DNA of 64,000 nt, from the NCBI GenBank assembly GCA_965178125.1, contig OZ237749.1, forward strand, positions 124,001 to 188,000. The letters run 5' to 3'. The translations under genes were made by a program, and so were the position numbers. This stretch comes from Bilabrum cf. latius (lineage: Eukaryota). The notes beneath the pieces are model-generated. The model was not told the DNA's origin. It ran no database searches and saw nothing but the letters and a program-made list of their open reading frames with translations. Positions within the stretch are counted from its first letter, which is position 1. Every line of letters begins with the position of its first letter. Below are positions 17,987 through 59,852 of the stretch, piece by piece.

Positions 17987-18032
<46 letters not shown>

Positions 18033-18496
18033 TCGGCATTTCTTTGCCGAGCTCTGCTTCGAGCGCCCCCGCCTCGGAGGTAGCTGTGAGTGCACCAGTT
18101 GCTACAGCCTCTTCAGGTTCTCTCGGGGCGAGCACTGGCACTGGCAGCACCGAGCAAGTGCTCCCGGCTCGGAGCGAGCACCAGCAGCCGCTCGGTCTGG
18201 GAAGCGGCTCGCGCAAGCGGAAGCGGCGGAGATCCGGCACTCCCAAGGGGTCTGGAGCGGAAGGAGGGGTCACTGAGAAGGCGCGGGTTTTACCTGCCAG
18301 TGTCGGTGCATCTGCCAGCGACACCATCATCGGTGCGGACGCGCCGAAGGGTCGGACGGCAGCGATGCCAGTGGTTGGTGCACACATGGATGGGGCCACT
18401 AGCGCCGGTCAGTCCGGGGTAAAAGCCTCACCGCCGCCGGCTAAAATGGCCCGGATAGGCGATGGTGGCCATGAAACGCGAAGTACAGGGCTTTGA
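17333..18496 (+). CDS. UBE2T: Ubiquitin-conjugating enzyme E2, UBE2T-like (~387 aa), with a Ser-rich tail; 3 in-frame TAGs inside the UBC fold
   Basis: GPPDSPYDG, FPMEPP and HPNIDSSGRIC (catalytic Cys), then W..S.SI.SVVTSVQALL*SPNCDDPL..AYF*EVRAHARKYA, which is the conserved C-terminal half of the UBC domain. TAGs at 17651, 17723 and 17798. Ends at TGA. Confidence 0.85.
17989..18030 (+). repeat. (CAG)14 microsatellite read in frame as poly-Ser (AGC)
   Basis: Direct reading. Confidence 0.9.
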
Positions 18497-18646: not shown

Positions 18647-21600
18647 ATGGATACATAGTCCACCCTCATAACGAGCATTTTGGGCAGTTTAGATGCCAGG
18701 TTGCCGTCAGAGAAGGATGATTCCGAGCCGTGGCATTAGGCACTACGAATTGATGGTTCTGGTCTACCGGCTGCATCAACAGGCTCACACAGTGATCTGA
18801 TTGAGCTGACTCGAATGACTGCAGTATCGATCCTACATGTGCCACGGCCGCCTCTGGATTCACAAGCGCAGAGCCGGGTTGAGGAGGCTAGCATGGACAT
18901 CCAGCCGTAGAAGATATTTTCAACCATGGAGGACTACCGCTTGCAAGAAGACAAACGAATAGCTGGCTTGCGCATCGGATCCATTTTGTCGCTGCTTTCT
19001 ACGAGTCGACGGTGGGCACAAACCTCAGGATCCGCTGGCTCGGGCGGAGCTGCACAGCTCCTATAGGATTTGGAGGAGACGAGACTATTCTGGTGGTCTA
19101 GGCAGGCTAGCACAACTTAGATATTGCGTGAATAGAGCCCTATTGAGTGGCTCCAGCTGGCGTATCGCGGTTGCTTCGGAGAGGACGGCACATTTTCCGA
19201 GGCGGCTCGATGGAGCCGTGGAGTGGGCTCGAGGCGTCCTCTGGATGCGGCACAGTCGGCTAGCAGCGAGGGCCGCAACCCAAGGAACAGCCTCTCGCTG
19301 CATGCACCCACTGCGCGCGAGACAAACGCCCTCTACTCGGCCGCCCGCGCCCGCCTCGACGCCCTCAGCGGCGCCCTGTGGCCCGCCGACCGCATGGCTG
19401 CGGTGGACCTGGCGAGGGAGCCGTGGGTACGGGTGCTCGGGGCTCTCGCGCGTGCGGCGGGTGCATTCGATGACATCGGCAGGGGGGTTCAGGTGGTCCG
19501 TGCTACCGATGCGCATGCTGGGGCCGAGCAGAAGGAGGATCATCAGCAAGGGGGCGGGTTGGGGGGAAGGGGCAGGGGCAGGGTGTGCTTGGTGCGGTTG
19601 GAAGAGGAGGCAGCCGCGGGGATGGCGCCCCCTTGTTCCCTGAGGCCTCTGCTGGTGCGAGAGGGGATGGGGGTGGGTGGTCAAGCCGGTGGGAGGAGTG
19701 AGGCAGGGGCGCATGGGAATGGCGACGTGGAGGATGAGGATGAGGACGAGGACGAGGACGAGGAGGATGGGCTCTCAAGCAGTTCTGGATCAGATGGCAT
19801 GATGGCAGACGGCCGATAGGATGCGATTGCAGATGGAGAGGACCAGGACGGTGGTGCTAGCGGGGAGGGCGGTTTCCCGGCAGAAAGCCCTGTGCATTTC
19901 AGAGGGGGGGGGCGTGCCGCTCTGGTGCCGAGGGCAGGTGGGCGCAGGGGCACGGCCGACTCGCTGTGGGACACAGACCTGGATCCAGACTCCCCGCGGC
20001 AGATCGGCCGTGGTCACGCGCGCACCCCCGAGCCCAGCCGCCCCAGGAACAGCCTGTTCGCCGCTGCACTAGACACGGTACGCTCGGGGCTGCGGCTGGT
20101 GGGCGCGCGCGGCGGCAACGTAGAAGATGACGGAGAGCACGGCGGGGATGGGGCTGATCAACCTGCCGTTGGTAGGCCGGGTAGGCTGGAGAAGAGACTG
20201 TTCCAGCCCAAGCCCGAGGCCAAGCGCCCCCCCGTGCCAGCCGTGCCCACAGCGGTGGTCAGTTCGCTGGGTGCATCGGCGGCCAGGGGCGAGTGCCCGC
20301 ACCTGTGCTGGCCCAAAGTGGATGGAATCCAGCTGCAGACGATGCGTCCAGCCGCGGGAGAAGAAGAACAAGAGGAAGGGATGGAGGTAGATGGCCCGGA
20401 GGCAGAGCCCGCAGGGATGTCAGGTGATGGGGCGAGGCGCGGGAGCGTGCACGCTGCCCTGAATGAATCGATGCTTCGATTCCAGGCACTCACGGAGGGA
20501 AGCGCCGAGTACGCAGCTGCGACAGGTAGGGCGCGGCTGGCGCTGGCGAGGCAGACCGCGAGCGCTGTGGTGGAGGCGGGCGCTGCTCTACTGCGGGTAC
20601 TGGTGATCCTGGAGACGTCCGGCCTACACCGGCCCAGCGCTGGGGAGAGGTGGGGCGGCGTGGATCCGCAGGTCAGGGCTGGCGCGGCAGGTGCCCTCCG
20701 ACGGCTGGAGGAGGCGTTGGCCCGTGGGCGTGGTGAGGAGGCCGAGTGCAGCTGGCTGGCGAGGGGGGCGGCCGCGGGTCGCAGCCCGCACGGCCTCTGG
20801 CAGTATGGTTAGGACCAGAGGTAGGGACATGGGCAGGGTCATCCAGGAGGTATGGATGGTGCTCCCGCGGCTGCTCATGCTCGCGTGTCTCCAGAGGAGC
20901 GGAATGCCATGGTGCTGCTGGATCAGATACACGTGAGGGCGGGCAGGTCGGCGAGGAGGATCGTGGCACTGCTGGACGAGGCCGCAGGACCCCTCGCCAG
21001 GCTGTCTGCCCGCGTGCACGGGGCGCTGCGGCACGCGAGACAGACCACTCTGCAGCTGATGGCCCCTCACGCGCGCAGGGGCTTCCTCAGGCGGAACTGG
21101 CTTCCACTGCTGGTTGGCTCGGGTGCGGCTGCCTTCGGAGGGTACAGGCTGTGGCAGCGGGGCGGGCTGTCGATGGAGACATTCAGGGGCGCCATGTCGG
21201 GAGTGGAGGGCTTCTACAGGGAACACTTTGACGGGCCCGTCAAGTCCATCGCGAACGAGGTGCTCCGCGGCAGCCAGGGCATCGAGGGGGGGCCCTCGGC
21301 GAAGGAGATCGGCGGGGCGCAGGCGAGTCTGCAGAGGATGCTGGGGGACTTTTACACAGAGCTGGCGGACGACAGGGTGCCAGTGCCGGGGGAGCCCGTG
21401 GTGGCGAGCGGGGTGGGCAACGGCGGCGGCGGCACAGGAGGAGGAGGAGATGCTGCTGCGCCACAGCAGACCGGGCTGCTCCCTTCCGTTGGTCCCGCGG
21501 AGGTGTTGGACCGACAGCAAGCGGAGCAGCTGGCCCTGCAGCTAGACCTGGGAGTGGTCTCTCGGTTGTACGAGGGCGAGCTGAGGACTCCCATTCGGTC

Positions 21601-31670: not shown

Positions 31671-33154
31671 ATGCCGGCCCCTAGGAGGGCGGTGGGTGCT
31701 CTGCGGCGCATAATGTCGGGTATTCAGCCGACTGGAATTCCTACGGTTGGCAACTACATAGGAGCTCTGGCCATGTGGGAGAGGCTGCAGCACTTGAGCG
31801 TTGAACCGGCCATGTTTATGCTAGCAGACTTGCACTCTCTCACGGTACCATTTGACCCGAAGGAAGTGCACGCTCGCAATTTGTAAGGTGGCAATCACTT
31901 GCCCAAGACGTGTGGCCGCTGTCCGACCAGTTCGCTGGAACCAATGCAGCGTGTTTCTCTGTTGTCCCGATTAATTTCCGCAGGCGCACCGCAGCAGCCA
32001 TTCTGGCGTGCGGCATCGACGCGTCTAAGGCAGCCCTATTCCGGCAGTCTGCCATCCCCGAGCACGCGGACCTCGCGTGGCTGCTTGCCTGCCACACACC
32101 ACTGGCCGCCGTGCAGGATAACCACCAGCTGCGGGACAGGCTTGCGCAGCTGGAGAAACAGCGCAACGACGGCTCTCTCTACGACGACAAGCTCCGCGGC
32201 GGCGTGGCGGGCGCCTCGCTCGGCCTCCTGTCCTACCCTGTGCTGCAGGCATCTGACGTGCTCGTCTGCAGGGCCACCGGGGTGCCCGTGGGGGACGACC
32301 AGCGGCAGCACCTGGAGCTGGCCAGGGACGCAGCCAGGGCGCTCAACAGAGCGTGCGGGAAGCCAAAGAAGAGACCCAGGCCGGGCCACTTCGCGTACCC
32401 GCGACGACGGGAGCAGGAGCAGGGGCAGGTGGAAGAGGGGGAGGGACAGGAGGGGGAGCTGCCGTACCGCCCCCGACACGTGGTGCCACCCCCCGTGACA
32501 CTGTCCGCGGCAGCCCCCTGGAGCCGGATCATGTCACTGCGCGACGGCCGCCGCAAGATGAGCAAGAGCGACCCCTCGGCCCAGTCAAGGATAGAGCTCT
32601 TGGACTCGCCGGACGACATGGCGCGCAAGATTCGGAGGGCGAAAACCGACTCCGGGTCTGGGTTCGCGGTGGACCCGGAAGGGAGGCCGGAGCGAACGAA
32701 CCTTCTCTAGCTGTTTGCCGCCCTGGAGTCGGTGCACGCGATCCGAAACACGGACACGGACCGTGACGGGGGTGCGGTGGATGCTGCGGGCGGGCACTAG
32801 GCTAGCGGTGGCGATGGATCCACTGTATCAAGCGGACAAGAGGCTAGTGTAGACGATACGGTGGTGGATGTAGCCGGCCTGGTGTTCCCCGAGGGTCGCA
32901 TGACGAGTGCAGAGGAGGTGGCTCGTCGGTTCGACGGCCGCGAGGGCGCCACCACCGCCTTCAAGGAGGAGCTGGCGGAGCTGTGCGTGGCGGTGCTGGG
33001 GCCCATCGGGGGCAAGATGGGGCGCCTGCTGGAGGACGAGGAGCACCTGCTCGAGGTGCTGAGCGGGGGCGAGCAGCGGGCCAGACGGATAGCTGCGGGG
33101 ACGGTGGATGACGTGAGGGAGCGGCTGGGACTCGCGCCAGTCGCCAGGATGTGA
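31671..33154 (+). CDS. WARS2: Tryptophanyl-tRNA synthetase, bacterial/mitochondrial type; intron 31883..31983; 2 in-frame TAGs; start uncertain
   Basis: [16 protein letters not shown] (HIGH-like), [33 protein letters not shown]. The anticodon-binding domain [19 protein letters not shown] continues past TAG 32708 and 32798 to TGA 33152. The GTAAGG...CAG intron restores the frame. Confidence 0.9.
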
Positions 33155-37580: not shown

Positions 37581-38566
37581 TTACACCCTGCCAGTCACAT
37601 CAGCCAAGCACCGGCCCTCCAGCCGCCCCGAGCCTGCGTCCCTCCTCGCCGCAGCACTGGCACGGCGCAGTGGCACTGCTCGCTACCCCGGCGGCACGCT
37701 CATACCAATGCACGCAGGCGGAGCCTTTCCTGCATGCGAAACGGGCGCCTGCAGGCAGGACCGACCACTGTTGGCTCCCTGCGCCAGCGGCGACCCCGCC
37801 CTCGCGGCCCCACCGTGGCCGCCGGTGCTCCCGGTGCCGCCCACCAGCGGGTTCGCGTGAAACTCGGAGGCGTAACACCGGTCAAAGACCGCGTCCACGG
37901 CCGGTGCAGCTCTATCTCCAACCGCGGTGCGGGTCGCCTTGACTGCCTGCGCGCGTGAGCTGCGGCGACGCGAGCCGAGCGGCAGGAAGAAGACCGTGTC
38001 CTCCATGAAGCGGCACTCTGCGAACTTCGCTGCTCGAACCTCGGAGCATGCCAGATGCTGCGCATCTGAGAGGTCGAGACCAAGTCTATCATTGTCAATG
38101 GCATGCTGCAGCTCGTGAATCAGGACCGTTTCTAGCTCTCCAGGATGCTGCAGTCTGTCGGAGCAGACGACTATGCGGGATGGAGGGCTCAAAAAGTACG
38201 CCCTCCCGTCCGGCTTCCCGGACGGCGACAAGAATTGTTTCTTCTGCGAAAAGAATCCAAGATAAGGACTTGCATGCGCAGCTCGCACCGCGGTGGAGAC
38301 CGAATCTAAGCTAACACTGAGATTCAGTGGGACCTCACTTGGCCGCATTCCATGCAGTGTACCTCAATCGAGGGAATCTTCCGCCCAGCATGGGGAAGGG
38401 ACGGACTGGAATCAGCCGCAGCGGGTTTTGATAGAGTTTTGGTCCCGCATCGAACCTAAGCCCGAAAGAATTGCAGCCTAGCCGCAACTGCGCCTGTGGC
38501 GTCGTCGATGAGCTGCTAGAGGGACTGGCATGCTACCTCCAGGTCTGATCTGCTTTTATCTACCAT
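37581..38566 (-). CDS. ATP23: Mitochondrial inner-membrane metalloprotease ATP23 (peptidase M76); intron 38244..38338; 3 in-frame TAGs
   Basis: HCMEC|...IVVCSDRL..LIHELQHAID..HLACSEVRAA..C (HEXXH). Exon 1 from ATG 38566 has TAGs at 38516 and 38456; another TAG at 37683. Ends at TAA 37581. Confidence 0.85.
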
Positions 38567-41459: not shown

Positions 41460-41873
41460 TTACGAGCGCTCGCCACGGATGCGGCGGGCCAGCTGCATGT
41501 CTCGGGGCATGATTGTCACGCGTTTTGCGTGGATTGCACACAGGTTGGTGTCCTCGAACAGGCCAACCAGGTAGGCCTCAGCGGCCTCCTGCAGGGCCAG
41601 GATGGCGGATCCCTGGTAGCGAAGCTGTCCAACCAAATGTTCCTGGCCGATCTCACGCACCAGGCGCTGGAAAGGAAGCTTGCGGATAAGCAGTTCGGTT
41701 GATTTCTGGTACCGGCGGATCTCGCGCAGGGCCACGGTCCCGGGCCTGTACCGGTGCGGCTTCTTCACACCGCCAGATGACGGGGCAGATTTACGAGCTG
41801 CCTTGGTGGCAAGTTGCTTTCGAGGCGCTTTGCCGCCGGTAGATTTGCGCGCTGTTTGTTTAGTACGCGCCAT
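41460..41873 (-). CDS. H3: Histone H3 variant (canonical tail, divergent loop 1)
   Basis: [28 protein letters not shown]...[28 protein letters not shown] follows the canonical C-terminus directly. Confidence 0.98.
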
Positions 41874-43680: not shown

Positions 43681-45655
43681 TGAATGAGGCCAGCGTCGCA
43701 AGTGTTTTGGGGAGTCCTCGAGCGCAATCGTCACAGTGCCACAAGCACACCCGAACCTAAATCACCCATATAATTGGCCGCAAATCAGACGAGAATGGAC
43801 GACAGCTAGGCAAGCAGACGGTTAGCAAAGATATCAGGTGTCTCCAGAACCAACGGTGGCGATTAGGCCGATGGGGCGGCAGAGCTACGAGTTGCTGGGA
43901 GCGGGGTGGTCTCTGCAGAAGCAGCCGAAAAGTATAGAACAACGCACAAGCACATGACAGATGAAGAGAGGGATATTCTGGTGGAGAAGTAGGCACAACA
44001 GGAAGCGAATAGAGGCAATGGTACGCGCAGCGATACGGACTAGCTCAACGAAGTGCTTGACGAAGCAGCAACCACAATTTTGCTCACAAGCCAAGACATT
44101 CGCTCCAAATTGAGTCCATCATACTTCTAGTCTGACGTGGCAGGAGCGGTGCGGTATGCGGTCGTGCTGGCAGTTTGCAGCCTTGCCGGGGTTGCACTGG
44201 GAACATGCAACTGGGTGCCTATCGCAGTGCCTGCAGGCATGGAGTAGGCAGATTGGGATACTGCACTGGTTGTTGGGGGTCTGCGATTCGGCCAGGCATC
44301 GGCACTGGCCCAAGTTGCTGAACCCACAAACCGCCTTGTCTCCGGACGAACCCAGTAGACTTACACGCTGCCGTCGGTCGCGGCACTCGAGCTGGCGGAG
44401 CGCATTGATGCTGACGTGGGCGGTGTCGCGGCAGGTACGGGTGGAGGGGAGCCCGGCGGATCCAGCTGGCTGTCGCAGGCGGCTAGCGGAAGCGAAGCGG
44501 AGGCCGGTGCTCCTGTTGAAGCTCCAGCTCGTTCCGGGTGGCTCGGTGGTGTGACGAGTGGCAGGCGAGGTCTGCTGTCATGGCCCCTGGAGGCGGCCGG
44601 TGGGCCCGCCTGGTGGCTCGGCAAGTGGCTGGCTGGGACAGGCACGGGGCTGCAGCGCGGAGAGGGCGAGGAGGGGGAGGAGGGCAGCTGGCTGTAGGTC
44701 TGGCTCTGGCACTGGCCGCTTCTGCTGGTGACAGCGAGTGCAGCGCAATGCGCTGGGGTACTGGCGGAGCGGATGTGGGGCGCAGTGGGAGGCATCGGTC
44801 GAGTGGGAGCTGCGGTGTCATCCGGGGAGATTGGTGGGGCGAGTGGGGCTGGCGGCAGCAGCGGCGGCAAAGCGAGAGCTGGATCTGGAGCAGGAGGAGG
44901 GGCGGGGGCGGGAGGAGGCACGATGTCGTCTGGGCTGCTGTGGGTGGCTCTCGGGGCCGTGCTTCCTTCCTGGGTGCTGGGAGTGCTGCGTGCACCGTGG
45001 GTGTCTGCTGTGACGAGTGTGCTGGGACAGTGCGTGAAGGACATTGTGCTGGGCGCGAGCGTGCTGGTGCTGACAAGCACTGCAGCTGCTGGATGGGTGC
45101 TTGAAGGGAGTGAGGGACCGGGGGGTTCGGTGGATGCCGAGGGGCTGGCGGGGGGCATCATGGGGATGTGCCAGTGAGTAGATCTGGTGTTGGTATTAGT
45201 GCCGTGGCAGCTGTCCTCAGCTGTCCTCAATGCTGTTGCACAATCGTATTATACTTTGTGGATGCTTGCAATGAGCACGCGTTTCTTCACGTCAAAGACT
45301 TATTACACTCTCCCCAACTGTTCCCTACCATCTCCTTCCTCTTCATGTCCATCCCCTCGAGGTGCTGCACCTCCCCCACCCACACCAGCACCCCCCCCAT
45401 CCCCATGACCCCCTCCCGCCCTCAGGGCCGACTCGTGGAAGCCCCCCGCCGCCGCTGCCGCCCCCCTCGATGCTCCCGACTGGGGCCCCAGTGGCACGGG
45501 CGCGCCCAACCACTTGCCCACCCGAGCCAGCACCGAGGGCGCGGGGGGCAGCAGCACGCCGGGCTCCTGCAGGCGCTCCTCGGTGAGGAGCCAGCCAGCG
45601 CGGTGGTAGTGCGAGGGCTGGCTGGCCTCTCGGCCCGATAGCAGTGTGACGAGTG
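43418..45655 (+). promoter_or_regulatory. Cluster of 5 co-oriented copies of the dispersed motif (G)TGTGACGAGTG inside exons; function unknown
   Basis: Copies at 43418, 43503, 44549, 45009 and 45644; further copies elsewhere (see findings). The regulatory label is inference. Confidence 0.5.
43795..45177 (+). CDS. Membrane protein (~460 aa), tentatively GET2/CAML-like; 8 in-frame TAGs
   Basis: ATG 43795 (upstream in-frame TAA 43771) to TGA 45175, broken only by TAG at 43807, 43864, 43990, 44041, 44128, 44245, 44356 and 44695. N-terminal ASRRLAKISG and several hydrophobic helices. Confidence 0.65.
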
Positions 45656-46160
45656 CGCTGCTGGCGGCCTCAGCCAGAATGCCCAGATTGCGGGGGTCCA
45701 GCACGGAGCCGATGGGCCTGCCCCCCGGGTCATGACCGTGACCGGGCACAGCCCTGGCAGCCCTGGCGCCCGGCACTGGATCCGCGTGCGATTGCCGGAG
45801 CGGGATGCTGCTCGCACCGCTCATCGGCAGCTGAGATCGATCCCGCGGGAGGGGCTCTCCAGAGGCGAGCGAGAGCTGCAGCATGCGGAGCTCGTCGATC
45901 TGGCGCTGCAGGACCCGCATCTGCCCATCCTGGGAAGTGCGGCGGTCTCGGGCACCAGCATACGCTTCCGGATATCGTTTGCGAAGGTATGTGTCGTGCT
46001 CATAGCACGCATACAGGAACAGCGCAGGCAACGTGAAGGACTTGGCGATCCACCAGCTCAGGTCCAGCACGTCCGAGGTGCGGTCACCACTGCGGGTGAT
46101 AATCTGAAGCAGCCGGCGAAACGCTCGAGATCCACGCCGAAACGACCTAATCGTGTCCAT
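45303..46160 (-). CDS. Hypothetical protein (285 aa) with one TM-like segment and a short coiled coil
   Basis: Intact ATG-to-TAA ORF filling the gap between neighbouring genes; WWIAKSFTLPALFLYACY followed by QMRVLQRQIDELRML. Confidence 0.6.
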   Translation of the reverse strand: MDTIRSFRRGSRAFRRLLQIITRSGDRTSDVLDLSWWIAKSFTLPALFLYACYEHDTYLRKRYPEAYAGARDRRTSQDGQMRVLQRQIDELRMLQLSLASGEPLPRDRSQLPMSGASSIPLRQSHADPVPGARAARAVPGHGHDPGGRPIGSVLDPRNLGILAEAASSALVTLLSGREASQPSHYHRAGWLLTEERLQEPGVLLPPAPSVLARVGKWLGAPVPLGPQSGASRGAAAAAGGFHESALRAGGGHGDGGGAGVGGGGAAPRGDGHEEEGDGREQLGRV

Positions 46161-46443
46161 TGTGACTGCTAATGGCTCTCCACAGTTGCAGCACGACTGG
46201 ACAGACTCTTGCTTGGTTGCACGGTTTCACTGCAGCCGCGCAAGCCGCTTAATCTAGAACCATGAGAAGGCAAATTAAACAGTCCCGTGTGTTGATACCC
46301 AATAAAGCTCTTGGGAGTCTACAGAGACTGCAAATTGGGGAGCCCTCCAATCGTCATTCGGAGCCTTGGTCCGCAAGTGTGCTCTATCGGGCCTCGTTAC
46401 CGCACTCTGCGCATACCCAAGTCTAAGTTTGCTCTCCTATACC

Positions 46444-48669
46444 ATGCGAGGCTATTTCTTGCATGATCCTCTGGAGGCTGTGAACGAAGTGGTTCTCAAG
46501 GACTGCGGTGTGGAGGTTTCCGAAGGCCCGGCTGCATCTAGCTCCAGCGCGGCAGCGGCTGCTGCACCGCCGGCTGGCGAGTGCAAGTCAAGCAATGCGA
46601 CAACCATTGCAGCAACTACGACTATTTGCCTAGATATTCGTGATTCCGCAGATGCTTGGGTGCGAGTGCCGCTGAAAGCAGGCGAGCAAGCAAAGATACG
46701 CGCCGGCGTCTGGTGGCGCTTGCGGCACGCGCCTGCCCCCGAGGCTGTTTCCTCGTCCGCAGGCGCCATCGCAAGCAGCGACGACGTAGAAGTTGCTTGT
46801 GACTCTGCGTCTTCATCCGCGATTGCGGCCGGTGTGCTGACCGCGCCCGGAGCAGAAGGCGAGCCGGTGCCTGCCGGCGCGGCGCAAGTCAGCACCGACG
46901 GTGCCGCTGTGGTGGAGCGCTTCGGCGAGGCGGGGGCGCGGCAGCAGGAACTGATGGAGCGGCCTTACTGGAAGCACCACGGGTCCAAGCACACCCGCGA
47001 GCTCGTGTGCGAGCTGTGCAACTGCTTCTACCAGCTGGGCTGGTGCTCCGGCACCGGCGGGTCCATCAGCATCCGTCGCGGCTGCCGCACGTACATGGCC
47101 CCGTCCGGTGTGCAGAAGGAGAGAATGATGCCGCAGGACATCTACTGCCTCGATAGCGAGGGGCAGCCCCTGTACGTGCCCCCCAAGCGATTCGGAGCCG
47201 AAAGGGCGCCCAAGCTGAGCGAGTGCGCGCCCCTTTTCAGCCTGCCCTACTCGCTGTGCGGGGCGGGCGCCTGCCTGCACTCGCACCACCCCTCTATCGT
47301 GCTCGTGTCGCTCATGTTCGACCGGCACTTCGAGGCGACCCACCTGGAGATGATCAAGGGAGTGTCCGGGCACGGGTACTACGACACGATGAAGATCCCC
47401 ATCATTAACAACACCGCGAGGGAGTGCAACCTGACCGACTCGCTGCGGCTGGCCATCCAGAACAACCCAGGATGCACGGCTGTCATCGTGAGGAGGCACG
47501 GGATGTATGTCTGGGGCACTTCCTGGGAGAAGGCAAAGGCGCAGGCCGAGTGCCTGCACTACCTGTTCGACGTCGCGGTGCAGATGAAGAGGATGGGCGC
47601 GGACCCGACCAAGCCCGCGGGGTATGTGCCCGACACCAACGACGAGCCGGGTCTGGCCCACGGCTTCGGAGAAGGTCTCACGGAGAAAGACGTCATTGCG
47701 GAGGGGAAGAGGGACAGGTGGGCCTGGATGGAAGGGGGGAAGGGCGCCGCGTCGGGTGCGGGCGACAGCGGTGAAGCTGCGGGGTCGAAGCGGCGCAGGC
47801 CAGACGGAGAAGAGGAGGAGGGTGCAGCCTCTGGCGGGGTTGCGGCGAAGAAGCACCGCGCGGAGGGTAACGGGGCTGCTGCTGCTGCTGCTGGCTTCCA
47901 CGGCGCCAGCAACGAGACCCTCGCCACTGACGCAGACATCGAGGGCCTGGACCCCGTACTGCAGGAGAAGCCCAGCCTCAAGTCGTACCGCGCCGTGCTG
48001 CTGGACATCGAGGGGTGCATGACCCCGCTGTCCTTCGTGCACGACACTCTCTTCCCCTATGCGGCCAAGCACATGCGGGCCTGGCTCGAGAGCAACTGGG
48101 GCAAGCCCGAGTGCCAGTCGATGGTGCGCGATCTGGAGGCCGACGTGCCGGCCGGAACCGATATTGCCTCCGTCGACTCCGCGTTCGGCGCGCTCAAAGG
48201 CCTTGCCGATCGCAATGCCAAAGTCACCTCTCTGAAGAGGGTGCAGGGAGCTGTGTGGCGAGCCGGATACGCCTCTGGTGAGCTCAAGGGAGATCTATTT
48301 GACGACGTAGTGCCATTCTTGCAGAGGGCAACTGCAGCAGGGGTCAAATGCTACATATATTCGTCCGGATCGCGTGAGGCTCAGCGACTGCTCTTCGAGC
48401 ATTCTAAACAGGGCGATATTCGTGGACTGCTGGCGGGGTACTTTGACACAACCACTGGAGCCAAAGTCTCGCCTGCAAGCTACAAGAGCATTTCACTGTC
48501 AGTCGGAGCAGCATCTCCTTCAGAGGTCCTCTTCTTTACTGATGCTGCAAAGGAGGCTGTTGCAGCCACGCGAGCTGGCATGCACGTGGTCTTGACTGAC
48601 CGACCTGGCAACGTGGGACTACCAAAATCCAAATTCGCGACCATTACTGATTTCACTGGAGTGGCTTGA
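46444..48669 (+). CDS. Methionine-salvage fusion: degenerate ARD/MtnD-like cupin + methylthioribulose-1-P dehydratase (MtnB) + enolase-phosphatase E1 (MtnC)
   Basis: MtnB: ELCNCFYQLGWCSGTGGSIS, APSGVQKER, GAGACLHSH, HLEMIKG, VRRHGMYVWG. MtnC HAD: LLDIEGCMTPLSFVHDTLFPYA, YIYSSGSREAQRLLF. N-terminal LDIRDSADAWVRVPLKAGE..IRAGVWWRL resembles ARD. Ends at TGA. Confidence 0.92.
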   Translation: MRGYFLHDPLEAVNEVVLKDCGVEVSEGPAASSSSAAAAAAPPAGECKSSNATTIAATTTICLDIRDSADAWVRVPLKAGEQAKIRAGVWWRLRHAPAPEAVSSSAGAIASSDDVEVACDSASSSAIAAGVLTAPGAEGEPVPAGAAQVSTDGAAVVERFGEAGARQQELMERPYWKHHGSKHTRELVCELCNCFYQLGWCSGTGGSISIRRGCRTYMAPSGVQKERMMPQDIYCLDSEGQPLYVPPKRFGAERAPKLSECAPLFSLPYSLCGAGACLHSHHPSIVLVSLMFDRHFEATHLEMIKGVSGHGYYDTMKIPIINNTARECNLTDSLRLAIQNNPGCTAVIVRRHGMYVWGTSWEKAKAQAECLHYLFDVAVQMKRMGADPTKPAGYVPDTNDEPGLAHGFGEGLTEKDVIAEGKRDRWAWMEGGKGAASGAGDSGEAAGSKRRRPDGEEEEGAASGGVAAKKHRAEGNGAAAAAAGFHGASNETLATDADIEGLDPVLQEKPSLKSYRAVLLDIEGCMTPLSFVHDTLFPYAAKHMRAWLESNWGKPECQSMVRDLEADVPAGTDIASVDSAFGALKGLADRNAKVTSLKRVQGAVWRAGYASGELKGDLFDDVVPFLQRATAAGVKCYIYSSGSREAQRLLFEHSKQGDIRGLLAGYFDTTTGAKVSPASYKSISLSVGAASPSEVLFFTDAAKEAVAATRAGMHVVLTDRPGNVGLPKSKFATITDFTGVA

Positions 48670-49278
48670 TTGGATACAAAAGGTGTGTGTAGCTTGCAGA
48701 AATATACTGATAAGAATAAATCGTCACCGCCGTTGCATGTAGCCGTTGGACATCTTCAAAATAGCAAATATTTAGCTCTCATTGAAAATTTATCATATCG
48801 AATAGACTTATACCGAATGATTGGCCTAATTCCACTCTGGCGAGCTTATTTTCGGATAGAATGAAGACAAATGAGCCAAATACCGTCCCTGAAGCTGTTC
48901 TTGGATATATTGAAAGCCATTTCAACAGCCATTTGTCTGTTACCTTTCTATGGCATTTATGCCTTGCGATGCGGTTTGGATGGAGGCATACATGGTCTCT
49001 ATAACGGTTGCTATGTCCTCAAAACGTCTTTTAATTTATGCATGTTCTGAACACGAACGCTCATGATTACGTCGCCTGTCCAAAACTCCTGACTGTTTAT
49101 TTTCTTAACAGTTCACTGTTACTATTTGTTGTCACTTTTACGAAGACTTTCAACCATAATTCTACAGATTCATTGTAACAGCCTTATGCTTAAGCACTAT
49201 TATTTATCCTTATTATTTCAACTAGTGAGCAATACATATTTTTGATTTCCATGTTTCTGTAGCTGCGTTTGAGATTCT

Positions 49279-49446
49279 CGCACACAGGTCCAGATCTATC
49301 AATGCAAGGTACCAATCGTCACTAAGCTTGTAAAGCATCCCCTCGTCTCATTTCTTCCTTCGCGCACACAGGTCCAGATCTATCAATGCAAGGTACCAAT
49401 CGTCACTAAGCTTGTAAAGCATCCCCTCGTCTCATTTCTTCCTTCG
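49279..49446. repeat. Perfect 84-bp tandem duplication (49279-49362, 49363-49446)
   Basis: cgcacacaggtccagatc...tcatttcttccttcg repeated head-to-tail with no mismatch seen. Confidence 0.9.
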
Positions 49447-50229
49447 GGAGGAAGGCGGACCGGCGCGGCAGTGGTCGGTCCGGGGCCATCATTTTGTCAT
49501 TTGTGTGGGTCAGATTTGGTGCTGAAACTGATACTGTGCACCGCAGTTTCAATAATCGTGTGTGACTGTGTGTGTCCTTTCGGCTTACATCGGACATCAA
49601 AACTCGGCCCAATTGGTAGATCAGAATCAATACTTGACTGAACTGCAGAAGAAGAGTTAATCTTAAGACTGGAAATCGCATTTATCTAGCTGTTCTCGAT
49701 TTACTGTCTCGAATTATCGTTGTGCATCTAAGTAATACATAACTGCAACAGGCAAACCACAGACATAAAATATTCAAGCATAAAGTGAAATCGAGTTATC
49801 AAAACACATTTACAGCATTATCAACATTCTTTCCAATTGCAAAATTATTTGTTCATTTAAAGTGTATATCATCTGCACACATACTAAATCCTTAGCACAA
49901 GTGCATCTCGGCTCGAAATCATCTAATCTTACTACTTTACTTGTCAACATTGCATTTTCGGCTGCAGTTTATTGATTGAATTGGTCTAGACATGTTCTTG
50001 ATTTGAATACATGCCTTTGTTTACCTAACGCGGGATGGGATTCGGTATTGATGGGACGATGAGAGCGCAAGTGGTCAGATTGTTCCGATGTAGGACCTAT
50101 CGCAACCGGTGATCCACGTGCACTGGTTTTATGTATGCTCTCTCTGTGGTCAGTAATAATTCGTAATATACCAAATATGGTGTACTCTGCATTGAGCCAC
50201 TCTTAAATTATCTTACTTGTCGTGCCAAC

Positions 50230-50263
50230 ATGATACACAATCATCAATGATACACAATCATCA
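50230..50263. repeat. 17-bp tandem duplication (atgatacacaatcatca x2)
   Basis: Direct reading. The end of the second copy overlaps the TGA of the adjacent minus-strand ORF. Confidence 0.85.
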
Positions 50264-50869
50264 AACGAACATGTACTGTTCAAAACAAAGTTTCAGGTTA
50301 ATGCCCGCCTTGTCATGAGTACGTCTGCATGCATCTTGTAGACACTTTCCTTGTTTGGGCCAACGGTTCCCTGCGCTAGAAAGCACGCGTTTGGAGCATG
50401 CCGTAGATCGACAAAGAAACTCCCCGTCAGCAACTAAGATGCACTCGTTCAACTGTGCCCCTTGGCCTTGGAACTACTTTGACAGCAGGCGGTACAGCAC
50501 GGTTAGACTATCTGAGTCTTCCCTGATGTCCTCCATAACTGCAGCCGAGTCATTAGTTTGCATGCCAAGCTGCGCAGAGAGCTGCCCTGCTGGGCTGCCT
50601 CGCTCACCGCCGGCGTGGCTCGTCGAACTTTGCTGTCGCATCGATCCTGTTGATGGTACAGTTCGCGTGACTCGCAACGACGTCAGTGTGCTCCATTGCA
50701 TGGCGTATGTATTCAATAGAAGCCATACTGACAACACAATCGCAGCTAGCGGGCCTAGTGTCCAAACCGCTGATTGGATCGAACCCATTCGACATGTGAG
50801 GCTGCAGGGGATAATCCCGAAGACTCGCCTATGGGCGGAAGTCGCCGTAAACCTTTCGATTCTACGCAT
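50261..50869 (-). CDS. Hypothetical single-pass membrane protein with a Cys-containing C-terminus; 1 in-frame TAG; 5' end uncertain
   Basis: ORFs 50474..50869 and 50261..50452 are in frame, joined by TAG 50474, and end at TGA. TM-like LGPLAAIVLSVWLLL. Confidence 0.45.
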
Positions 50870-51438
50870 TAACTCAGAAAAATACTTGGAACTGAGTATC
50901 AGTCAAGTGCTACCTGACACCTTCCTTTTTTTTTCAGGTTCAAGGTCCCGCTGTTGCACTATGCAAATTTCAGGAAGTGCATTTCAATTCAAGTCCGAGC
51001 ACGACTAAATGCAGCGGAAGCGAGAACAGGTTACGCCAAAGTGTAATCGTGATTAAAGTAGCCCGCCTGCCGTTTGTGGTGGTGTCAGCGAATCTCGCAG
51101 CGTGCACTCGGCCGGCGGGCGACTGCAATGCACTCCAGCCAGGGGTGGTGGAAGAGGCATGGCTAGGGTTGTGCCTAGGCCGGCCATTTGATAACACTCA
51201 TTCTTCGCACTAGTCTAAATGTTCAGTATGACATGATTTTCAAATTCCGACTGTTTCGGGATTGCATGAAAGAGTGCCTGCCAGTTCGATTCGAAAGTGA
51301 GCATGTAGGCCATGCTTCGAAAGGCGCAGAACCTCGGGTGAGATCCAATCAACCAACATAATCATCAAAATTAAATCAATGGATTTTTCAGTTAGTTTAC
51401 AGACCAAGCCCCGAGACTGTCCTCCGCAGCTCGACGTA

Positions 51439-52188
51439 TCACACGCCAGGAGCTCGACCAGAAGGGCCAGCACGTGGCGCCCCCGCCCCACCCCCCTCTC
51501 CAAACGTAACGTTGCCGTGCTGTTGTACTGGTACGTACGTCACGCTGCCCCAAAACCCCTCCTCAGCCTGCTGTGCCACAACCCGCCGGGTCGCTTCGAT
51601 GTCGGCCGTGAATGTACGGACGGCCTTCAAGAACTGCCAGCATAGATATCCGATGTAAAAGCTAATTAAGATATTCAGGATGCTGAATATGACCTAGTAG
51701 ACCTCCTGGTCGAAGGTTGCCATGTAGTATATTTGCAGGCCCACTTGAAGGGCTTGGTAGAAAAGGTAACCCCACACGCCCCAACTCTGGACATAATAAG
51801 CACTGTACAGAGCACATATTGGGAACATGAGCGTAATCAGTAGAATGGGAGACAGCCCAAACCCCCAAAATAGTCCGAAAATCAGGTCAATGATTGCAAA
51901 AATCATGAGTGATCTCCTGCATGACATGATTATGTATATGTTCTAAATGCTCTCGGCCGACAAGCCAGCACCAGGCCCAAGCTATGCCCCACGATCGCCA
52001 TAGATAGTACTTGGATGCCGCTGTTGCTGCTGTGGAAGGGCGACAACAGTTGCAGTCGGAATACCATCGGCGCCAGTCGGCGCCTAATACTAAGGCTGGC
52101 CGCCCCCAGGGTACTACGGGGTCTATCTGGCTCTTGCAAGCTCTTCTCGCTATAAACGTGCAGCTAAATCTGCGTCCGACTCGGCCAT
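51439..52188 (-). CDS. Small four-TM-like membrane protein (249 aa) with an N-terminal DAxLAARLQxEE-type motif and a Q/P/Y-rich linker; 8 in-frame TAGs
   Basis: MAESDADLAARL*REELARAR*TP*YPGGGQP*Y*AP...PQQQQ, then four hydrophobic helices. TAGs at 52150, 52123, 52114, 52090, 52084, 51982, 51943 and 51694. Ends at TGA 51439. Confidence 0.8.
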
Positions 52189-52371
52189 TTGTACAGGTTT
52201 AGAGAGCCTAAACTCGTTTGACGTATGAGACGTCATGCAGATATTTCTCCGTTCAGCTGAACGTTCTTGGGGAAAAGGAACGTTCGGTTTTAACCAAAGA
52301 AAGTAGGGGGAAAAACGCACTACTTTGGGTCGCCTAGAGATGTCACATAGTCCAACTTGAGTCAATCAAAT

Positions 52372-53145: not shown

Positions 53146-53594
53146 GGGTCGGCTGTTCCTGCGATGCATCATCGGTGCCATGGGTGCATGGGTATTATAG
53201 TTTGCATGGGTGTGGGCAGCTGTTTCGGGCGTCGAAACGGTTCGCAAGGGAGAAGGTGGCACCACGCGGAGGTTCGTCGAATGCCTCCGAGTCATGTCTC
53301 TAGTGCTTGCGCTCTCATTTCGTTTGATGGGCTCTAGTGTACCGTAGCTTCGTACAGGCGCAGACTGGCCTAATGTGATCCATAGTCGCCTTCATCGCCC
53401 CATTTGCAAACCAAGCGAGCACAACAAGCGACCGCCACAAATACGAAGATGATGCAAGACGCCACCATGACGGTCGCAGCGGAAATTCTATCGGTCTACT
53501 TGAGCGTCGCTCTGGGCCTGAAGGCCGCGTTTAGAAGCTCACGCTAAGTTTTAAGTTGGTGATCACTAACCGGGACTGATTGCCATCTTCAGAC

Positions 53595-56500
53595 CTTTCC
53601 TGGGACTTGGTGCAAGTGTGGACGTAGATGCCTTCGATTTTGGCAGGTTGCTCGCGGTAGCTGTACAAGTCTGTGCGCTTTGGTTGGAGTCTTCCGGGCG
53701 ATGTAGCGCTGGTACACGACGAAGTATGCTTTCAATCTGCACTAGCCGCCGCTGGCAAGTCCGGCCATCATGACAGTCTGCCAGTTCTAGTCCCGTGCAC
53801 TTGGTTGGGTCCAGAACTCTCTCCTCCCGGTGCAGAGCTTGCGTTTCGGTCCTACCAAGCGTAGGCTTATGGGCATATATACTCTTTATTCTCAGTCATG
53901 GCTTTTCTGGTATGTTCGTACTATGTGCTGGATACGGCACACATTGCTGTGGGAAACGATGCGTTTCCGGAGCTCGACGACCAGTACATGGCGTGCGTAT
54001 TGTGGAGGGTTGCAGGGGTTGTGTCTACCATATTTTGTTTGGTGGCACATTTTTTGCGGGGACAGTGCACCTCTACTCCGCTGATTCTAGAGGCATCGAA
54101 GGCTGTCGGCCTGGTGGGCATCTCGACGTGTAACCTCGGCCGCATCGCGTTGATGCGAAATACCAGCTAGTTCGCGAGGGGCATCGGGGTAGAGACGGTC
54201 TTGTTCCGAGCATTGATCCCATTGATGCTGCGCGGCGATTTCATCGTTGCATGCACCGCAATGGCGGTCGACGTTGCTCAAGTGATCTACGTGCAGGCCA
54301 TGTACTTCCCTGGAGATCGCAGTCTCAACGACTATGACGTGCAGCTGAGTGTCGTTGGACTTATCGTTGCTATTGTGGTATTCAAGTCGGTGTACGGAAG
54401 CGCAAGAGAGCAGTTCTGCCTCCGCGCGCGGCTCTACAAGCGCAGGCTGGAAACAGCTCTCGCGGCGCAAGCCAGGGCCACACTCTCCAAGCAGTCCCCG
54501 TGCATGCAGCTGCTGGCCAGATCCGGGGCCCTAGTGCTGCTGCCGGGAGACGCAATCAATGAAGGCGGTAGCGACTCCTCTACATCCCCTAATTCCAGCG
54601 AGGAGCAGGAGGCAAGCAGCCCCTCCCAAGGCGAGGCCCCTCCTGACCTCGCCAGCGACGGGGAGCCGCAGCAGCCCCCTCCCTCTACGTCGCACTCGTC
54701 ACATCAACCCGCCCCGAAGCAGGACACGCATACCTCTGACGACGTGCTGGTGCTCCGGGAGCCCTCTCTGCTGCTGACCCAGGGGGAGGCGACCCACTGC
54801 GACCATAGGGCCAGGCAGTGGGGCGGGCTGGGGCTCAGGTGGTGGTCGCACGCGGGGAGCAGGGAAGGGTCGCCCACAGGTCTCGAGACCTCGGTGCAAG
54901 GTGTGACGAGTGCGCGCAGGCTAGCACCTTGGCAGATGCTTGCCCCAATGGAGGGTGTGGCCCAGGTCTGTTCCTCCCTCGGTGTCCGGCGAGACCACGC
55001 GCCCCTCGTCTTTTTATTGCTGAGCGAGTGCGTCGGCACCGTCGTAATTGGAGAAAGGAAGCCGATGAATAGCGGATCTGAACAATTTTAGGGCAGGCCT
55101 CTGCAACAGGGCAGCGGTCCGCCTCGCAATGGCATGCTAGACCGGTTCGAGCCAGGTGCGGATGCTTGGCTGCGGGCCGCAGCCGTCATCCTAAGAGGGG
55201 TGGTCAGAGTGGACCGACTCAAGCATGCAAACGCCGCCACTAGGTCGGGAGGATCTTCGGGTTTGGCCCGAGACATGTCCCAGCAGGGCAACAGCAGCAC
55301 CTCGCTCTCCCACGCCTAGCGAGCTGGCGGCCCCAACAACGTGCAGGGCCTGCAGGCAGCCCCCGCCGGTGCGCCGTCATCTCGGTCGTAGTCCGACTCG
55401 AAGCTGGGTAGCAGGCTTCCGTCTTAGCCCAGCAGAGCCCGTGAACCCAATTTGACGAGAAGCAGGCAAGCAGCGCGCACCGCAGCTGCGCCTCGTGGAA
55501 CCCCACAGTTGCCTCGCAAAGGGCATTCGTGGGCCGGGTCGGGCACTCCGCCGCCCCACAGCAAGCAAGCTGCAGTCACCACTGCGCAAGGCACGCGTGC
55601 AGCAAGCACATCAGTCTAGCAGAGCATACTTCGCCCAGGAAATAGCCTGCCTTCGCCCACTGCGCCGCCCTAGTCCGGCCGCAGCGACAGCTGCTCTGGC
55701 GCCGCCTCCCGGCAAGTGCGCAGGAGGAGAGAGGTGGTGGGTGCAGCCATCCAGGCCGCGGCTCCGCGGGTCATGGAGGTGGCCAAACTCGCGCCCGGTC
55801 TCCGCAGGTCTGGATCCAGGTCTAGCATGGTCAAACCCAAAACCTCGCGCGGCAAGCGACAGAGGCCGTGGTGCTGCGACTGGGCGACCAATGGTGGCGA
55901 CCAGGGCAGTTCGAGCTGTTGCGGGGTGCCAATTCCAGCCGTGCTGCCGTGGACGGTCACCCAAGAAGCGATTCGACTCAGATAGCAGATTTGGCGCCTG
56001 CGATCGGCGTCGTACTCTGCTCTCATGGCAGGTCTCCGACTGCACGTGGCCCCGATGCCTGACGAAACCGAGGTCCTTGCGGTGAGCAAGCAGCTGCTGG
56101 GCCCCGCCAAGATGCGGTCTCAGCTGCAGCGGCGCATGAGGGCGTACGGTCGCCAAGTTCCGCTGGCTGTCTCGACCGATGAGCACGATGCTTTTGGGGG
56201 GGTCTCTCTGGCGGGTTCGCCGCAAGCAGCCTCCAAGAGCAGCACAACGGCAGGTGAGTCGGCCTCCACGGAGCTGACACCGGCAGCGGGGCACGGCGGG
56301 CAGCACTTTGCCGCGCTCCAATCTCACCCTGATACGATGCAAGCCGTCAAGCCTGCAATAAGCGTGCAGCCGTATCTGCCGCGATCGGCCACGGGAAGCA
56401 GACGGACGTTCCGGGGCGGCGTGCTGCCTCAGCAAGGCAACGGCTCAGAGGCGGACTCATCAAGCCGCAGCAGCGAAGCGATGATCGGCGCATTGAAGCG

Positions 56501-59500
56501 GACTGAAGTGAGGGAAGTGACCATTGCCGATCATCTAGATCTCGGGGGTGATGCTGACCGCGACGCCGCTAAGCAAGCTGGGATCCAGCGGCGAGGGGGT
56601 CGGGCTGGGAAGGAAGGCCTGCTGTCACCCAGAGATGACCGAGACGAGAAAGAAATCAAGGGAGGAGTGAGAGCAGGGAAGCGACGGTCTCCGCGCAGCT
56701 AGTCTCGCAAGCCGGGCGGTGCGCCGTCAATGCAAGGAGGAAAGTCAAAGTCAAAATCGATGACAACTGATTTTGAGCTTTCTAACTCCATTCCAGTGGC
56801 TGGTGACAGCTATGAGATGGCTCGCAGGTCCTCCCATGAGACAGCCGGCAGGTCATCTCGCGAGCTAGGCGACGGGAGGTCGAGTCGCCCGGTCCATTCG
56901 CACCACTTGGGCTCTAACCCCGATGACGACCTCCAGCCGCCATCATCGGATGGATTTTTTGAGGCTATGGGTATCGGGTCAAGTGGAATTGGATACAAGA
57001 ATTCCTTTATCGAGCATGGCGTAGGCGCAGTCAAGGATGCAGCAGCTGCACCTAGCCCGCACAGCGGTGGGGTGCAGGTCGCGGCCGACCCACTGAACAG
57101 CCGCGACCGGCTGCACATGCACCACTCCGCCCACGCAACATCCGAGCCGTTGCGGGGCGTCGATGCCCCCATAGTTCCAGGTGGCGTACAACCATAGAGC
57201 GATGCTGGAACTTCGCCGACTAGTGGATCTCCAATCGACAGCTCTCCACCGGGTGGCAATTCTCTGACTCGAAGAGCCACACGCGATGCGTCGGGAGTCA
57301 CGACAGTGGCACCATCCCGCACCGCTATTGGGAACACTCGGGGCCGCGAGGCAACGCATGCTGCCAGCACCGATGCCAGCAGCGGCAGGATAGAGTCGTA
57401 CGCCAAGGAAGACGATGTGCCCGTGTCGATGAACTCGTGGGCTCAGGCAGCTGCCAGTAGTCCAGGCACGGGGCCATTGGTCCACGGCTAGGAAGGAAAC
57501 AGCGAGTACGACTCTTCAAACACTCACGGCCGGGACACTGCAGAAACGCACGGGCTCACTGTGACACAGAGCACCTATGATACGGAGCGCCCCCACCGGG
57601 TCAGGATCCCGCTGGTGCAAGGAAGGCCCAGTGCAGAGGTAGACTGGACGGACCGATCGCTAAACGGTGGTGCTAGCAGTGGAGAGTTTGCCACCGGCTC
57701 CAATTCGGTCGGGGCGAACATGCTGCAAACGGAGACGTCCTTGGGTGACGGCAGCTCCGGGGCGACCAGTCCACGGGAGTCTAGCCGCATGATGCATCGA
57801 CCAGTCTCCGTGCGTGAGCTGCAGCGTAAGACCGACAGGACAGCTAGGGGCTATGCCCATCGGGAGTCTGCAGAGCTGGATGCCTCCATGGACGATAGCG
57901 AAGGGCTCGTGGGGCCTGGCTACGAGCAGCCTAGGCTGGGCGGTCGAGCTAGTCTCGGTCTCGCGCCCATTCGGGAGGTGCCCGACAGCGACCCAGCGAT
58001 GGGTCGAATAGACACCGATGAAAGCACGAGGGAGACAGCAAGCAGCCCATAGACCGAAGACGCCCAGGCCTCGGGTAGGATGGAGAGAACCACATCGGAG
58101 CGGCACATGCAAGCGAGCCTACAGCCGGATGAGATCATTCCTACAAAGAATGGCAGCAAGCTCCCCAAGCAGGGCACCAATCACACGTCAGGGCGATCGT
58201 CCATGGAGCTTTTCAACCAGGACTTCACCGATGTGACGCCACGCACCAACACTGCTACTGAGGGACCGACTGGATACAGCGTGCAACGATTCCATTCGCA
58301 GGACACCCGGGCCAATCCATCCGCGGCAGTTGTCACAGTGACCCACGGAGCGAGGCCGAGGCCAGCTCAGGGGGCTGTGTTGGCCCTGTCGACTGACATG
58401 AGGGGCATTCCATCTGATATTCTCTGGCAGTTGCAGCACGACCGTAAGACTTCGCATGCTCAGCAGCTGCCAAGTGAGAGCATCGGCAGCGGCAGTGCAA
58501 TCCTGCGAAACAGCCCCCGCTTTCGCAGCAGGGCGGTCACTACGCGAGCCGATGACCCAGGCAACGGCATCCCTCGTGGGATGGGGATGACGCTGCAGTC
58601 TCGCATGCGGCTGGTTGCGGGGCAATCTGCCGGATCGGTGGCGGGCGCGTCGCAGATGCATGACGGCTTGCTGGACAACGCGCAGTAGAGCCCAGCGGTG
58701 CTGAGAGAGCATCACTTGGAGCGATGGCCCGTTGGTGGAAGCGTGCTCCTGCCTGCTTCTGCTATCGAGCAGGAACAGTCACAGGTTGGCGGCGGCTCCT
58801 AGCTAGCGCTTGCAGACCGGCATGGCAGCAGCTCGGCTGGGACCGCTTCCATCATGTCGACCGACGTGTTGTAGCGAGTGCACAATTTCTCGCATGGCAC
58901 GCACCGCGGCTCGCGTATGCTTCTCGCGGCCTCGAACTCATCTATGAGTCCTGCCGGGGGCGGCGATTCCAGCACAGGATAGACCCGAGCCTTCGTTAGC
59001 AGCAGGCGTCCTGACTCTGGGTCTGTCTCCGGAGACTCCGCCGATGACCTGAAGGAGGCAGTGTATAGCCAGCCAGACTGGCCATGCAGCCGAGGCAAGT
59101 ACGACATGGACGATGGCGGCGGCGGTGTAGCAAGCGGCGGTGGAAAGGCGGTTGCAGAGGCGAGAAAGCAGGTGGCTCGGTTCGCGCAGGACGTGGATCA
59201 GAACGCTGATCTTTTCCAGGGATCAGCAGATTCCGAGGCACAGCCAAGTGAGAGCGGGGATGATGGTCAAGACGGCCTGGAATCGTTCCAACCGCTGGAA
59301 CTGGCTCCCTTCCAGCGGTCACCCGGCACGGGATCACTACCAAAGGGGCAGCGATCGCCCCCCAAGTCTTCTCGGTCCAAGAACAGTGGGCTGCCCCCGC
59401 TCCCGCAGCACGCGCCGCTGCCCAGCCCAGCATTCAAAGGGCCATTGGGGAGGCAGGCCAACCCGCTGCCAGCCATCAGCGAGAAGGTCACGAGTGAGCC

Positions 59501-59852
59501 CACGGGCAGCCCGGTGCGGGACACCTAGCCAGCTCCCAGCTTTGCTGGTAGAGACACCCGCGATCGTGTGGCGTCAGAGGCGCTATACAGGGCTACTCCA
59601 GTGATTCCGACAAGCGACAAACTCGACGATTGGGTGGCATGCATCGTGCGCTCCGCGGGCAGGTGGGTCCACCGATTGCGAGTGCCTGACCTTGACGATC
59701 CCAGCGGCAGCCTATCGGTGCTAGTTGACAGCGAGAGCGGCAGCAGGCTTGTGCTGACTGCGTCAAGGGTAGAGGGGCACGATGTGGGGCTGCTGTGTGT
59801 GCACGTGTACGAGGCGCCCGAGTGCCTGATGCCGCAGACTGTAGCTGTGTAA
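53595..59852 (+). CDS. Very large hypothetical protein (>2080 aa): N-terminal multi-pass TM region and a long Ser/Gly-rich disordered body; 20 in-frame TAGs; probable short upstream exon near 53449-53545
   Basis: Twelve track ORFs (53673.. to 59568..) lie in one frame, and the only interruptions over 6.26 kb are TAG. Ends at TAA 59850. A branch-point-like cactaac and a ttcAG acceptor at 53592 lie upstream. Confidence 0.8.

Follow-up and report, generated by a model that had tools for sequence, protein, structure and literature searches.

The stretch presented here contains a histone H3 coding sequence on the minus strand (41463–41873), which comprises 137 codons, a Met and 136 residues, and carries no in-frame TAG. 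It is followed directly by the codon at 41460–41462; the plus-strand letters at these positions are tta, that is, TAA on the minus strand, and this TAA comes immediately after the residues RIRGERS. The last residue of this H3 is Ser, not Ala, and after helix 1, a divergent segment of 17 residues, with one residue inserted, stands in place of the usual AQDFKTDLRFQSSAVM; the protein is otherwise canonical.

The window, meaning the whole 64-kb stretch of DNA that was analysed, has a GC content of 0.48–0.69. When only TAA and TGA were treated as stops, long open reading frames (ORFs) of 2,788, 2,120, 2,090 and 1,509 codons were obtained, and these are open neither under the standard code nor with TAA as a sense codon. 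The gene products identified with Pfam include a MyTH4-FERM myosin, a DENN protein, NCA2, an RTP1-like protein, an MtnB-MtnC fusion (methylthioribulose-1-P dehydratase/enolase-phosphatase; hereafter MtnBC), a mitochondrial-type tryptophanyl-tRNA synthetase (TrpRS), ATP23 (Peptidase_M76), a DnaJ protein, a UBE2T-like E2 and a CLU-like protein. For the myosin tail, the best named match was Cafeteria roenbergensis (53% identity), followed by other stramenopiles, and the matches of MtnBC were from stramenopiles and plants. In our view, the window is nuclear DNA from a bicosoecid-like stramenopile that is GC-rich and poor in introns, with the affinity assigned from best hits rather than from a phylogeny.

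Several further features of the window were recorded. Split coding or spliceosomal introns seem to exist at 10589–10885 (+), 31856 (+) and 1514–1581 (−). The first ATG of the myosin ORF comes no earlier than codon 98, yet the ORF is open and coding-like upstream, where an N-terminal SH3-like domain was recognised by eye only; the first Pfam profile position represented in the TrpRS ORF is 66 of 292, and the CLU-like gene shows a frame change between two overlapping ORFs. A single TAG-free ORF at 46306–48669 (+) encodes MtnB (class II aldolase) joined to MtnC (HAD enolase-phosphatase), and the same fusion was also found in plants and other stramenopiles among the matches. Next to this gene, a low-GC stretch (0.48) at 48700–51400 has no convincing gene or family match; it contains a two-copy 84-bp tandem repeat (49275–49446, 98% identical) and a 17-bp repeat (50230–50264). 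At 3227–4699, long ORFs overlap on both strands, neither has a family match, and both were kept outside the ORF counts. The plus-strand ORF has 480 codons with two TAGs, ends in TGA and encodes a threefold 17-residue Pro/Ala-rich repeat, and the minus-strand ORF has 392 codons with seven TAGs and ends in TAA.

The sequence-only reading had taken TAG to be a sense codon, and this was upheld by 83 in-frame TAGs and by homology that runs past TAGs in UBE2T, TrpRS and myosin. The UBC fold of the UBE2T-like E2 (ORF 17231–18496 on the plus strand, ending in TGA) contains three in-frame TAGs between 17651 and 17800 (at 17651, 17723 and 17798), all of which are covered by the UQ_con match (E = 3.3e-30). 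Alignments to human UBE2T run on past the two of these TAGs that have aligned positions. The first is within an insertion, which has no counterpart in PDB chains and is a gap in 146 of 150 homologues. The TrpRS of the mitochondrial/bacterial type (ORF 31856–33154, plus strand, ending in TGA) has two in-frame TAGs at 32708 and 32798 (32708–32800), and its alignment to PDB chains resumes at query residues 351–425, in the C-terminal helical domain downstream of both. The MyTH4-FERM myosin (ORF 10589–16951, plus strand) has a single in-frame TAG at 15527–15529, and its MyTH4, FERM and PTB-like domains are all encoded downstream of it.

The ORF of 2,090 codons, referred to here as the giant ORF, provided evidence of another kind. 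Two predicted protein fragments of a close relative (P0202 and P0203; 76% and 93% identical) stop exactly at TAG sites of this ORF within 53862–55091 (+), so TAG is conserved in the relative, whose proteins have been cut short by gene calling under the standard code. These two fragments were the only relatives of the giant ORF in the protein search and neither spans a TAG site, so the amino acid is not readable there. Metagenome scans with the giant ORF and with the myosin tail gave no confirmed locus. Judged from these alignments, TAG is clearly translated as a sense codon.

Under the standard code, the in-frame TAGs would instead have to be unrecognised introns, pseudogenes or assembly errors. 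The late first ATG of myosin, the start of TrpRS at profile position 66 and the frame change in the CLU-like gene are indeed signs of introns. However, the same frames hold 83 TAGs against no TAA or TGA, and the ORFs of 2,788, 2,120 and 2,090 codons are open only with TAG as sense. TAGs also lie inside aligned domain cores, and their positions are conserved in a related organism. In addition, four public sequencing runs (X1–X4; one study, one organism label, possibly the window's own source sample and thus no sign that the organism is in culture) contain 97–99% of the sampled words. Ten runs matched in all; none was labelled as RNA, although three of them may be RNA. Every TAG would have to be spliced out, and we regard this reading as refuted in practice, with a negligible probability.

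The termination of H3 at TAA was evaluated by homology. The claim that H3 ends RIRGERS-TAA at the universal C-terminus was borne out by the minus-strand translation together with alignments to PDB H3 chains. When the translation with TAA read as X was searched against PDB chains using phmmer, the best match (E = 4.7e-74) covered query residues 1–137. Full-length H3 chains are aligned up to their final position (for example, 1–136 of 136), which corresponds to the residue immediately before the TAA, and nothing aligns beyond X. The 60 codons before the TAA have a coding score of 19.2 and a GC of 0.63, and the 60 after it have −10.0 and 0.52. In the same frame, TGA is first reached 318 codons further on, the intervening sequence is non-coding-like, and a read-through extension of H3 would, by coordinates, enter the convergent neighbouring gene.

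TAA had likewise been proposed as the end of the ATP23-like ORF, of the ORF at 45303 and of the giant ORF, with TGA ending the rest. All three TAAs were found, and TGA ends the 15 further ORFs whose 3' end lies inside the window. TAA thus ends four ORFs (with H3) and TGA 15, in a tally that covers about 19 gene ends in one 64-kb window, with ORFs delimited using TAA and TGA as stops. In the ATP23-like ORF (37581–38363, minus strand), TAA occupies 37581–37583 and is indicated by a drop in GC3. The Peptidase_M76 match stops about 95 residues before this TAA, which is thus not located at a conserved C-terminus, and about 60 before an in-frame TAG at 37685 in the tail. Across 60 codons on each side of the TAA, the coding score falls from −0.9 to −18.7 and GC from 0.71 to 0.56. 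In ORF 45303–46226 (minus strand), TAA lies at 45303–45305 with a second in-frame TAA directly after it (45300–45302); GC changes from 0.70 to 0.53 over the same span, and the coding score is barely changed (4.7 to 3.0). The giant ORF (53580–59852, plus strand) ends in TAA at 59850–59852, where the coding score over 60 codons on each side drops from 14.8 to −16.2 and GC from 0.63 to 0.55, and it is convergent with the RTP1-like gene ending at 59981. Neither ORF 45303 nor the giant ORF has a family match in Pfam.

GC therefore falls after all four TAA ends, and the coding score turns negative after three of them (H3, the giant ORF and ATP23). H3 is the only homology-anchored TAA, because the M76 domain of ATP23 stops some 95 residues short of its TAA and no family is matched by either ORF 45303 or the giant ORF; the support for these three TAA ends is purely compositional.

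TGA was found at conserved C-termini. The myosin stops at TGA (16949–16951, plus strand), and 41 of 58 homologues end at or before its last residue and 48 of 58 within three residues of it. The MtnB-MtnC fusion stops at TGA (48667–48669, plus strand) at a conserved C-terminus, its final three residues GVA being shared with the 91%-identical relative P0001. TGA, as read from these aligned C-termini of myosin and MtnBC, is a true stop.

It was also considered that TAG may be dual, mostly a sense codon but a context-dependent terminator of some genes. The end of ATP23 leaves room for this, as it is not fixed by homology and the M76 domain stops well before both TAG 37685 and the TAA; ambiguous stop/sense codes also occur in other protists, as described in the part of that literature available to us. 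However, GC3 in ATP23 stays at 0.75–0.8 past the TAG up to the TAA and collapses to 0.25–0.45 only after it. TAG follows none of the four C-termini that are anchored by homology (H3, myosin, MtnBC and TrpRS), and no ORF in the window needs TAG as a stop, although rare exceptions would be beyond the reach of a window-sized sample. We therefore consider a dual role of TAG improbable.

In-frame codons were counted in 21 long ORFs with a total of 17,951 codons, which gave 83 TAG, no TAA and no TGA. Of these TAGs, five precede the first ATG in the ORF that contains them and are possibly untranslated. The +1/+2 frames of the same ORFs contain 34/44 TAA, 114/110 TAG and 285/260 TGA. The number of TAAs expected in frame if TAA were synonymous with TAG was estimated from the CAA/CAG, GAA/GAG, AAA/AAG and TTA/TTG ratios; it is 13.0–22.4 when pooled and 34.4 when summed per gene, and the Poisson probability of observing none is below about 2e-6 even at the lowest expectation. 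The absence of TAA and TGA is partly built in, since the ORFs were delimited by these codons, and the real evidence is the length and continuity of the ORFs. The zero is still informative, because a giant ORF with about nine sense TAAs would look like short same-frame pieces; for this ORF alone, 9.1 in-frame TAAs are expected and none was observed.

The flanks of each stop-like codon were scanned in all six frames, using sites with no TAA or TGA within 40 codons on either side and a coding score above 4 on both flanks; a stricter threshold left too few sites, and lower thresholds were used. Coding-like sequence on both flanks was seen at none of the 64 TAA sites, 27 of the 302 TAG sites and 2 of the 338 TGA sites. 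The only TGA listed with coding-like flanks (21.2 and 10.6), at 17967 (−), lies opposite the E2 tail, which is of low complexity and rich in Ser and Ala, and is therefore best explained as an artefact of the codon score on the antisense strand.

These counts bear on the possibility that TAA, like TAG, has a sense meaning (UAR reassigned, or context-dependent) but is too rare to show in a GC-rich window, and that the TAA of H3 stops translation only by its position near the mRNA end. GC3 in the window is indeed high (0.54–0.92) and A-ending codons are rare (for example, 153 CAA versus 539 CAG), and codes in which UAA is both stop and sense are known, as in Blastocrithidia according to the portion of the literature at hand. 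However, the zero in-frame TAAs stand against 13–34 expected, the giant ORF has 20 TAGs, 30 CAAs and no TAA in its 2,090 codons, and no TAA among the 64 sites is flanked by coding-like sequence on both sides. A sense role of TAA is thus very improbable, still more so than a dual role of TAG.

The claim that TAA terminates was accordingly confirmed by the H3 anchor, the missing in-frame TAAs and the compositional change at the gene ends (GC after four of four, score after three of four). The associated claim, that the common UAR=Gln code is excluded, also held in the window: TAG is translated, whereas TAA terminates H3 and is absent from the reading frames, and UAG is thus decoupled from UAA.

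The use of TAG falls steeply with increasing GC3. It amounts to 8 per 308 codons at a GC3 of 0.54 (ORF 51439–52365), 20 per 2,090 codons at 0.67, 1 per 2,120 codons at 0.92 (myosin) and 0 per 1,149 codons at 0.88. Overall, TAG makes up about 10% of the putative Gln codons.

The amino acid read at TAG was evaluated from homologue columns, profile scores, codon context and repeats. At the myosin TAG site, Cafeteria roenbergensis has Q, with 10 residues on each side identical, and its myosin (P0085) has no in-frame TAG under the standard code. The column of 58 myosin homologues contains S 19, Q 14, T 7, L 7 and H 6 among others, and the nearest matches by E-value carry S. For the E2, the columns of 150 homologues contain A 55, S 46, G 15 and Q 8 among others at site 131, and R 33, E 28, K 18, A 15 and Q 14 among others at site 156; the matches of the representative search with the E2 domain were about 29–52% identical (best matches about 38%), and the TAG columns were variable. 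The BLOSUM-weighted sum over the three TAG columns was highest for S (2.13) and Q (1.93). The alignments to PDB chains also show variable columns at the TAG sites (A/N, S, K), and the residue is not fixed by them.

Pfam matches were re-scored with TAG read as each of 10 residues (10 of the 20 were tried), and the bits were summed over UBE2T, TrpRS and RTP1_C2. Q and T both reach 266.9 and K and E both 265.9, followed by R with 264.7, S with 264.0, Y with 261.0, A with 260.6, L with 257.9 and W with 254.6. Q thus has the best sum among the seven one-step neighbours of TAG (Q, K, E, S, Y, L and W), with Lys and Glu within 1 bit; Thr ties with Gln but is not a one-step neighbour. Re-scoring of MyTH4 was uninformative, as the TAG lies outside the envelope. 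In the neighbour-context test, a classifier was calibrated on gene-matched samples of real residues, and the value given is the probability that the true residue ranks as low as observed. This test disfavours S (0.005), A (0.01), L (0.03), E (0) and G (0), and keeps Q (0.42) and K (0.34). In two short codon repeats, at 7632–7664 (−) and 20807–20842 (+), TAG occupies the same repeat position as CAG, AAG or CAT; one of them is a GCA-NAG hexanucleotide repeat and the other is GGN-CAN-like. Some TAGs adjoin Ser runs of TCC/TCG codons.

From these sequence comparisons, glutamine is the best-supported of the one-step residues, and we consider this assignment fairly probable. The main competitor is that UAG is decoupled from UAA but encodes Ser, Lys, Thr, Glu or another residue. 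Ser is slightly above Gln in the three homologue columns and is the residue of the nearest myosin matches, Thr, Lys and Glu are close to Gln or level with it in the Pfam sums, and nuclear codes with UAG=Ser and UAG=Leu exist (PMC11687900, in the part accessible to us). However, the context test speaks against Ser, Glu and Leu, Thr is not one step from TAG, TAG alternates with CAG in the two codon repeats, and Cafeteria has Q in an identical context. A residue other than Gln is less probable, although clearly more plausible than a dual TAG or a sense TAA.

In summary, it is highly probable that UAG is an ordinary sense codon, most probably for Gln, and that UAA and UGA are the sole terminators in this bicosoecid-like nuclear genome, a conclusion drawn from one 64-kb window with about 19 gene ends and one homology-anchored TAA. 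We take this layout to match NCBI translation table 15. UAG would be decoded by a dedicated tRNA with the anticodon CUA, whose C34 would pair with G only, so that UAA would be left alone. In eRF1, recognition of the G in UAG would be lost or weakened, and UAA and UGA would still be read. TAG codons probably arise mainly from CAG by a C-to-T change, and they may be tolerated most in genes with a weak GC3 bias. By analogy with described systems, a tRNA(CUA) together with an altered eRF1 is the most likely mechanism here. In the accessible part of PMC5304391, a tRNA with anticodon CUA is described as reading UAG and not UAA, and a changed eRF1 as no longer competing at UAG; T32G in the GTS motif of eRF1 is given for Iotanema and Ala at position 69 for the rhizarian exLh. 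No tRNA genes were found in the 64-kb window with ARAGORN and Rfam, and eRF1 is not encoded in it.

This may be the first stramenopile nuclear genome (bicosoecid-like and Cafeteria-related) in which UAG alone is reassigned, probably to Gln, with UAA and UGA as stops, a claim of priority that we put forward only tentatively. Full-text searches of the literature accessible to us, outside subscription journals and supplementary files, yielded no case of nuclear UAG reassignment in a stramenopile or bicosoecid. If true, the decoupled code would have arisen independently in a bacterivore lineage that is GC-rich and culturable. Flagellates of the Cafeteria type are known as hosts of giant viruses. 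Each new independent origin tests the proposed route, in which tRNA(CUA) comes first and eRF1 then loses the recognition of UAG, and the gradient of TAG against GC3 would help to trace the spread of a new codon within a genome. In practice, gene calling under the standard code chops the proteins of this lineage at every TAG, and public collections already contain such fragments (P0202 and P0203). Annotation of the genome needs a translation table that reads TAG as sense and stops at TAA and TGA.

For comparison with known codes, we take UAR to Gln to be NCBI table 6 and the ambiguous stop/sense codes to be tables 27, 28 and 31. Nuclear codes that split UAG from UAA were unknown before 2017 and are still confined to few lineages, as far as the available parts of PMC5304391 and PMC11687900 indicate. 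In these same parts, reassignment of UAG alone to Gln is described for Iotanema spirale (PMC5304391) and for Protocruzia tuzeti and two phyllopharyngean ciliate lineages (PMC11687900). Reassignment of UAG to Leu is described for the rhizarian exLh and to Ser for Scotinosphaera, with Gln and Leu both occurring in phyllopharyngean ciliates, and UAR to Gln codes are described for many ciliates, Dasycladales/Cladophorales, Hexamita, oxymonads and Amoeboaphelidium (PMC11687900, accessible part). UAG-only reassignment is therefore already a known kind of code, and the lineage studied here would be an additional case.

The present code resembles that of Iotanema, Protocruzia and the phyllopharyngeans in that UAG is sense (here probably Gln) and termination is left to UAA and UGA. 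It differs from them in its setting, which is a bicosoecid-like stramenopile lineage with a very GC-rich genome, in which TAG use tracks low GC3. Whereas changes in tRNA(CUA) and eRF1 have been described or proposed for Iotanema-type organisms, the code here is known from the protein-coding genes of one window. As in exLh (Leu) and Scotinosphaera (Ser), UAG alone is reassigned and UAA is still a stop. Unlike in exLh, however, Leu is disfavoured here, being 9 bits below Gln in the Pfam sums and reaching 0.03 in the context test; as for Ser, the residue used in Scotinosphaera, the context test speaks against it (0.005), but the homologue columns do not. The UAR to Gln codes share the probable reading of TAG as Gln, but here TAA is a stop, as in H3, and never occurs in frame. 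Finally, a standard stop codon lies inside genes, as it does in Condylostoma, karyorelicts and Blastocrithidia nonstop according to the portions of those reports available to us. In contrast to these organisms, only TAG is found inside genes here, TAA and TGA are absent from the frames, and no gene end needs TAG.
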